This document shows, one piece after another, positions 1,616 through 1,645 of a stretch of 4,350 nt of DNA. Under the pieces are notes generated by a model. It was not told the DNA's origin. It saw nothing but the letters and a program-made list of their open reading frames with translations, and ran no database searches. This DNA comes from a virus (taxonomy: Duplodnaviria > Heunggongvirae > Uroviricota > Caudoviricetes). Each line of letters opens with the position of its first letter. The stretch's first letter is position 1. The DNA lies in the IMG/VR virus record IMGVR_UViG_2706794668_000012; one strand, 5' to 3'. The position numbers and the translations under genes are program-made.

Positions 1616-1645
1616 AAAAATCAGAAAACACATAATCTGATTTTT
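1616..1645. promoter_or_regulatory. Perfect 10-bp inverted repeat AAAAATCAGA-N10-TCTGATTTTT; candidate operator upstream of the capsid operon
   Basis: 1616-1625 AAAAATCAGA and 1636-1645 TCTGATTTTT are exact reverse complements with a 10-bp spacer, 74 nt upstream of the ATG at 1719. A -10-like CATAAT (1631-1636) sits inside the spacer/arm junction. Confidence 0.45.

Follow-up and report, generated by a model that had tools for sequence, protein, structure and literature searches.

A perfect palindrome at the edge of a conserved promoter-like region upstream of a capsid operon in a Gram-negative phage satellite

Capsid genes are present in 21 of 29 reference Gram-negative phage-inducible chromosomal islands (PICIs) and are dispensable for transfer (PMC10111431; PMC6092414), and in the literature searched we found no description of when such islands express their own capsid genes. 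Here we analyze a 4,350-nucleotide stretch of DNA (the window) from the Caudoviricetes record IMGVR_UViG_2706794668_000012, which by its gene content is part of a Gram-negative PICI and which carries a perfect inverted repeat in the control region of its capsid operon. Much like the late operons of other satellites (P4 Psid/PLL, SaPI operon I), the locus has a satellite capsid-related operon, a weak predicted promoter of its own and an upstream dyad in activator position. In P4 Psid/PLL the activator Ogr/delta acts on a dyad near -55, TGT-N12-ACA; no such motif is found here, and the island, unlike P4, follows the PICI order int-alpA-pri-ori-cos-capsid. The PICI EcCICFT073 likewise has int, alpA, a D5-type primase, an iteron-containing origin after the primase gene, cos, and a capsid gene in the late zone. 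It differs in that its cosB is divergent and Rpp-dependent, whereas the cos site of our locus, including the cosB side, is helper-like over about 160 bp, and in that the capsid gene of our locus is a protease/major capsid protein fusion placed behind a conserved small open reading frame (ORF).

The inverted repeat had been put forward, from the letters of the window, as well placed to be an operator for a dimeric regulator, overlapping a -10-like CATAAT and lying 74 nt before the first start codon of the capsid operon (the original prediction). Its location and sequence are exact, with two arms that are complementary at 10 of 10 positions and do not extend at either end, C1615 standing opposite A1646 and A1626 opposite A1635. 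The distance is also correct: 74 nt separate the end of the right arm at 1645 from the ATG at 1719, a start that is preceded by a GGAGG Shine-Dalgarno sequence (1706-1710) and agrees with a 195-nt gene annotated in E. coli relatives. We propose, tentatively and at slightly less than even confidence, that the right arm belongs to an upstream element conserved in front of the capsid promoter, and that the left arm, like the symmetry, is confined to the lineage and probably incidental. The repeat and the promoter-like features beside it are as follows.

1616-1625, no strand assigned: left arm AAAAATCAGA; DNA unconserved across the satellite family, which mostly has TCTGAA where the window has TCAGAA
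1626-1635, no strand assigned: spacer AAACACATAA; together with T1636 it contains CATAAT (1631-1636)
1636-1645, no strand assigned: right arm TCTGATTTTT; equivalent of the family-conserved AATCTnTTTTT
1631-1656, plus strand: promoter-upstream element, consensus ATtAATCTnTTTTTcTGATaaAAAt, about -63 to -38; a T-tract followed by an A-tract, UP-like
1659-1664, plus strand: candidate -35, TTTATT (TTTACT in most relatives)
1665-1681, plus strand: 17-bp promoter spacer TACCAGTTTTATCGATC, unusually conserved, with GATC at 1678-1681
1682-1687, plus strand: candidate -10, AATAAT (family AATnAT), with an inferred start at about 1694
1692-1707, plus strand: hairpin CCGTTA-ATCA-TAACGG, overlapping the first GG of the Shine-Dalgarno sequence

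Distant relatives were retrieved through the protease/capsid protein, and two IMG/VR pattern scans with the promoter block then yielded about 70 further loci (labels beginning with L are our own). Relatives from Kluyvera, Buttiauxella, Yersinia and Moellerella have protease/capsid proteins that are 52-60% identical, and the promoter block TTTAYTTACCA[CG]TTTTAnnGATCAATnAT is kept at that level of protein identity. In all of them a homolog of the small ORF is present, its stop overlapping the start of the capsid gene. The Yersinia and Moellerella relatives are without the block, and by inspection they have TTTACG-17-TATGAT and TTGTCG-17-TAGTAT at the equivalent place. In the form TTTAYTTACCA[CG]TTTTAnnGATCAAT[ATG]AT, the block is common to the window and three loci retrieved by protein homology (L005, L006, L008). 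When 31 unique sequences are anchored on the block and compared without gaps, conservation is strong from about position 1631 rightwards, with the consensus ATtAATCTnTTTTTcTGATaaAAAt-n3-TTTACTTACCACTTTTAnnGATCAATnAT, and weak on its left side. Of the two arms, therefore, the right one falls inside the conserved element and the left one in unconserved DNA. The TCAGAA of the window, as against TCTGAA in most relatives, amounts to one central base flip in a quasi-palindromic word.

About 25 distinct related lineages have one promoter-like site upstream of the small ORF, made up of a -35, 17 bp and a -10. In the window this site is TTTATT-17-AATAAT (1659-1687; family TTTACT-17-AATnAT), which scores 5.4-7.6 bits, below the threshold of the scan tool. 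It is nonetheless the only plus-strand candidate that recurs across lineages (best-scoring in 14 of 51 unique sequences), and the family -10, AATnAT, varies only at its least important position. The gene upstream has, in most relatives, a terminator that stops some 10 nt short of the conserved element, so that the operon promoter must lie inside that element. Transcription is predicted from the site to start at about 1694, which would place the right arm at about -58 to -49 and the dyad as a whole at about -78 to -49, where an activator or UP element would be expected and where the -10 would not be occluded. The CATAAT that the original prediction took for -10-like does overlap the dyad (1631-1636, part of the spacer plus T1636, the first base of the right arm), but it is not a credible -10: nothing that could serve as a -35 lies at 16-18 bp, the only candidate being an ATGACA 14 bp away, no promoter at that place recurs in relatives, and the shared one lies about 50 bp downstream.

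We favor combining these features in the following way. The palindrome is located in AT-rich DNA that controls the capsid (‘late’) operon, flanked on one side by a leftward promoter candidate, for a possible small RNA, and on the other by the rightward promoter. Here the functional unit would be a compact conserved promoter consisting of the upstream element (1631-1656), a weak -35, a spacer with GATC, a -10 and a start at about 1694. The right arm would be the distal part of the upstream element and probably helps to recruit RNA polymerase, whether by contact with the alpha C-terminal domain, by way of a sequence-specific factor, or both. The left arm would be sequence particular to the lineage and lie beyond that unit. 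That the symmetry is perfect is most likely incidental; the region consists of quasi-palindromic words (TCWGA, ATCA/TGAT), which can pass from direct to inverted repeats on the change of one central base.

In several respects this putative promoter resembles sigma-70 promoters with an UP element such as rrnB P1, with A/T-rich DNA from about -60 to -40, a distal T-tract, a proximal A-tract, a weak candidate -35 and 17-bp spacing. Unlike in those promoters, both hexamers are weak here (3-4/6 and 4-5/6), the upstream element contains invariant C and G positions, and the unusually conserved spacer has a GATC. The family consensus AATCTnTTTTTcTGATaaAAAt agrees with about 9 of 14 specified positions of the UP-element consensus reportedly defined by Estrem and colleagues in 1998, and with about 6 of 7 in the proximal subsite. 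If the promoter region 1631-1687 is correct, it would give studies of satellite late-gene control a well-defined stretch for reporter assays and footprinting. The spacer of the promoter is unusually conserved in its own right, with GATC directly before the -10, which suggests binding of a factor in the spacer or sensitivity to Dam methylation. The hairpin at 1692-1707, which pairs with the first GG of the Shine-Dalgarno sequence, would lie at the extreme 5′ end of the predicted mRNA.

The weight given to the perfect repeat itself depends on the space that is searched. In first-order Markov shuffles, inverted repeats with perfect 10-bp arms and a spacer of at most 20 nt are expected 0.016 times per 468-nt intergenic region (at least one in 1.4% of shuffles) and 0.088 times per whole window (at least one in 6.8%). 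The window contains two further repeats of the same class, one in the ori iterons at 366 and one in the interior of the capsid gene at 3368. The repeat is thus modestly unlikely by chance locally, and less remarkable with the whole window as the search space. One possible explanation is that DNA rich in A/T-tracts produced the palindrome by chance and that it has no role, the right arm being conserved through its closeness to the promoter. In AT-rich quasi-palindromic words one substitution can readily give rise to an inverted repeat, 0.09 expected repeats are no trivial number when the whole window is scanned, and the window copy comes from a decaying island with a disrupted primase gene and a frameshifted capsid gene. 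On the other side, AATCTnTTTTT is strongly conserved where the proteins are only 52-60% identical, and at least the right half would therefore be under selection; moreover, the dyad is identical in the intact island copies L152 and L153. We consider a pure by-product rather improbable.

The symmetry is not conserved among relatives. Mean complementarity at the dyad position is 0.28-0.38 in 29 non-redundant relatives, which is random for the composition. Within the close lineage, most E. coli copies retain just 7 bp (AATCAGA-N10-TCTGATT), and among 81 protein-homology loci TCAGA-N6-14-TCTGA is confined to close relatives in E. coli, where it stands at the corresponding position. The left-arm C is changed to T in two copies (L004, L139) and its partner G to A in five (L120, L121, L126, L135, L146); no copy has both changes, leaving the same pair broken from either side and uncompensated. 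Altogether, 12 distinct close variants show no compensatory change and three pairs that are merely broken. The dyads of different lineages have spacers of 6-14 nt, and at least 15 of 24 lineages are without any dyad. Two recombinants (L134, L137) join a family-type upstream region without the dyad to the same downstream promoter and the same small-protein type, which means that small protein and dyad do not evolve as a pair.

Several observations weigh against our reading of the right arm as promoter element and of the symmetry as incidental. The plus-strand sigma-70 candidates in the position-weight scan are all weak (5-8 bits), and the start is a prediction only. A second candidate, ATGACA-16-TAATCT, overlaps the dyad and scores 6.8 versus 6.1 bits in the window alone, with no support in relatives. 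Read on the minus strand, the block likewise gives a promoter candidate, TTGATC-15/17-TAAAAT or AATCAT (7-9 bits), and bidirectional initiation from it is possible. The invariant C and G positions of the upstream element suggest a specific factor over a generic UP element. The local chance of a perfect 10-bp repeat in the intergenic region is, as given above, only about 1.4%. Several other lineages have 8-9-bp inverted repeats of their own at the same place: TATCAGAAA-N14-TTTCTGATA in L084, ATCATAAA-N14-TTTATGAT in L103, TCATAAAA-N12-TTTTATGA in L090 and ATCATTAA-N6-TTAATGAT in L005, with one exchange of G:C for T:A between L084 and L103/L090. Finally, reverse-oriented ATCA[GT] words number 9 upstream against 3.0 expected (P 0.003, uncorrected for shared descent). 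The separate dyads of other lineages keep a lineage-specific binding site or hairpin as a minority explanation, and the features that bear on these alternatives are listed here.

1265-1288, plus strand: terminator of the ssb operon
1284-1445, plus strand: cos site, homologous to lambdoid helper-type phages, with cosN at about 1317-1335
1481-1562, minus strand: candidate small RNA, about 75 nt long; two strong terminators on this strand (1524-1481) form its end
1569-1597, minus strand: divergent promoter candidate TTGACT-17-CACAAT, 11.9 bits; TTGACG-17-CAGTAT or CAATAT in E. coli relatives
1719-1913, plus strand: first gene of the capsid operon, 64 codons, product possibly ribbon-helix-helix; its stop overlaps the protease/capsid start (ATGA)
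1910-3720, plus strand: ClpP-like prohead protease/major capsid protein fusion, frameshifted near 3000 and running into a stretch of N

First, in this lineage a dimeric or tetrameric regulator could genuinely bind the dyad. Since the dyad lies between two divergent predicted promoters, it would then serve both the capsid operon and the leftward RNA, as an activator site or as a common operator. The regulator could be the 64-residue protein, AlpA, another island protein or a helper-phage protein. The perfect 10+10 repeat at a local chance near 1.4% speaks for such a site, as do the dyads of other lineages with their one compensatory exchange. Relative to the predicted starts, the center of the dyad would lie at about -63.5 for the capsid operon and at about -68.5 for the leftward transcript, distances that are typical of class-I activators. 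The product of the first gene also has a predicted extended segment followed by two helices, with weak structural matches to ribbon-helix-helix (RHH) proteins. Set against these points are the absence of symmetry in at least 15 of 24 lineages, the one-sided breaks without compensation in close relatives, and the recombinants that have the same small protein and no dyad. A rigid dimer would not tolerate the spacers of 6, 10, 12 and 14 nt found across lineages, and the island has neither a second copy of the site nor a motif in common with the int-alpA control region. Indeed, no second copy of the dyad or of AATCTGATT is present in the window or in island L001, and a comparison of the int-alpA control region with the capsid upstream region, made with an AlpA site in mind, finds only A/T 8-9-mers in common. 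The half-sites ATCAGA and TCTGAT are 16 bp apart between centers, about 1.5 helical turns, and would face opposite sides of the DNA. Half-sites on opposite faces are atypical for a simple dimer. Taken together, we regard a genuine regulator site as unlikely, although it deserves serious consideration. The operator idea of the original prediction is partly borne out: the repeat does lie in the control region of the capsid operon, with its right arm in a family-conserved element, whereas it does not overlap the best-supported -35 and -10, and its symmetry is without evidence of selection. The palindrome itself, lineage-specific and at the edge of the conserved promoter region, adds little; its chief value would be as a pointer to the conserved promoter, the conserved small first gene and a possible divergent small RNA.

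The 64-residue protein was examined by homology and structure prediction. It has 102 homologs, all annotated as hypothetical and all from Enterobacterales, and Pfam and PDB sequence searches with it gave no match. The AlphaFold (AF2) model, with a predicted local distance difference test (pLDDT) score of 84, has an extended segment at residues 12-18 and helices at 19-35 and 44-63. Foldseek returned nothing significant (E > 3), its weak matches including the RHH proteins TraM, PrpA, MetJ, ParB-pCXC100 and SegB. From the model, an RHH-like protein is plausible, an assignment that is without statistical support in these searches. The locus resembles the operons of RHH autoregulators (Arc/Mnt, CopG, omega) in having a small first gene with a predicted strand-helix-helix product before structural genes, and short repeated words in either orientation upstream of that gene. 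Unlike RHH operators, the dyad here is clear of the best-supported -35 and -10, its symmetry is unconserved and its half-site spacing varies, and membership of the 64-residue protein in the RHH class is only putative. The ATGA overlap with the protease/capsid gene is present in every relative examined. Two sequence types of the protein, TVHIDAET... and SVHLDAQT..., occur behind the same promoter block.

Searching for sites of known regulators, we compared the dyad by eye with consensus sequences and rejected CRP, LexA, the DnaA box, IHF (WATCAANNNNTTR), P2 Ogr/P4 delta (TGT-N12-ACA) and lambda CII (TTGC-N6-TTGC), as well as Fis, for which the G-N13-C spacing is one off. TCWGA pentamers number 22 against 3.2 expected; most represent one conserved copy by descent, and they were not used as evidence. 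In E. coli-lineage loci (for example L002, in the stretch homologous to window positions 1605-1650), four TCWGA words alternate in orientation within 40 bp, as TCTGA-N6-TCAGA-N10-TCTGA-N3-TCAGG. A direct repeat inside the promoter region, at a 31-bp offset, has 65% identity, consists largely of T-runs and was judged not significant.

A further possibility is that the repeat acts as a nucleic-acid hairpin, either as a 5′ stem-loop of a leftward transcript that begins in the conserved block, as a structure in RNA reading through from upstream, or as a DNA cruciform. Loops of variable length with pairing maintained in different lineages, together with the one compensatory exchange, are easier to reconcile with a hairpin than with rigid protein binding, and the minus-strand reading of the block would start a transcript near 1648. 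Folded as a single strand, the dyad reaches -7.0 kcal/mol as DNA (z -4.0), which speaks for a hairpin, and -7.8 kcal/mol as RNA (z -2.25), a weak and A-U-rich stem. The stem does not resemble a terminator, being without a G+C-rich stem; an intrinsic terminator was considered and rejected, since 8 of 10 pairs are A-U, the T-run lies within the stem and the terminator scan did not flag it. In addition, the dyad would be untranscribed from the best-supported promoter, most lineages have no hairpin, and close variants show no compensatory change. An Rfam scan of the whole window at E <= 1 gave nothing at the dyad, its only matches being spurious microRNA hits on the ori iterons. On balance, a role as a hairpin is very unlikely.

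On the other side of the palindrome, the minus-strand promoter candidate at 1569-1597 is followed after about 40 nt by two strong terminators, which together delimit the candidate small RNA. The palindrome lies midway between the -35 elements of this candidate and the rightward one. In the most elaborate form of the operator idea, the dyad would be the shared operator of a bidirectional switch through which the RHH-like 64-residue protein, or a helper-induced factor, controls both the leftward RNA of about 75 nt and the capsid operon. We give this switch only a slim chance; if it were true, it would involve a previously undescribed small RNA encoded by the island. Only the terminator hairpin of the candidate RNA is structurally conserved, and the RNA has no match in Rfam at E <= 1. 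A conserved single-stranded UCCUUUGUCG in it resembles an anti-Shine-Dalgarno sequence.

The same intergenic region contains the packaging site, and the repeat could in principle be an accessory to it, for example a cosB-like terminase site or an IHF site. In a sensitive blastn search against phages, only the segment 1284-1445 matches, corresponding to the region just upstream of terS in mEp460, phi458, 1720a-02, CP-1639 and Stx phages. In the alignment, position 1317 of the window falls opposite base 1 of mEp460_4F5, a linear record, and the segment is on that ground the cos site. The dyad begins 170 bp past the end of this phage homology and is therefore not part of cos. It lies about 300 bp from cosN, whereas the proposed determinants of PICI cosB are within about 65 bp of cosN (PMC9026076), and in phages the homologous segment stops about 65 nt before terS. 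Furthermore, the right-arm element is kept in relatives that have the same promoter and no nearby cos, and the IHF consensus was not found by inspection. A packaging accessory accordingly receives hardly any credence. The homology of cos to lambdoid phages extends over about 160 bp with the cosB side included, while with EcCICFT073-type islands only the first ~144 nt of the query match.

The assignment of the element to the PICIs is based on int, alpA, pri-rep followed by ori, cos, a size of about 10 kb, unidirectional genes and the absence of terminase and tail genes, as seen in the intact island of L152 and L153 between cspD and clpS and in L001, which is of like layout. The window itself begins with a C-terminal remnant of a D5-type primase (1-282), followed by an iteron-containing ori (300-540), an ORF of 81 codons, ssb (828-1250) with its terminator, the intergenic region of about 470 nt, the 64-codon ORF and the protease/capsid fusion. 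A megablast of the window against phages returned zero matches. E. coli chromosomal islands are about 87% identical to it and carry int, a small helix-turn-helix gene, ash, icd, a helicase or primase gene, ssb, the 64-codon ORF and the protease/capsid fusion. An exact-protein look-up places the window's own lineage between cspD and clpS-clpA, with int, AlpA (PF05930), DUF4222, primase, ssb, the 64-codon ORF and a fusion of 626 residues.

The window matches the decayed copies of the island, in which an insertion sequence (IS) interrupts the primase gene and the capsid gene is divided into parts of 381 + 252 residues. The primase is reduced to a C-terminal remnant of 93 residues in the window, and the IS is inserted in L150 and L151. 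The frameshift of the protease/capsid gene lies at 2990-3060 (381 residues plus the remainder), the 626-residue fusion being intact in L152 and L153, and 266 N (3721-3986) interrupt the gene further on. In the ori, many GGTGAACAG iterons in both orientations surround an AT-rich core and are the source of the spurious microRNA matches. In some E. coli islands a gene for a PerC-family regulator takes the place of ssb directly upstream of cos and the capsid operon (L003, 1222-1494). The int-alpA intergenic region of the intact island (L152, 4519-4560) contains a perfect 12-bp inverted repeat, ATAAATCGTCGA-N13-TCGACGATTTAT, which would be a better operator candidate than the dyad studied here.
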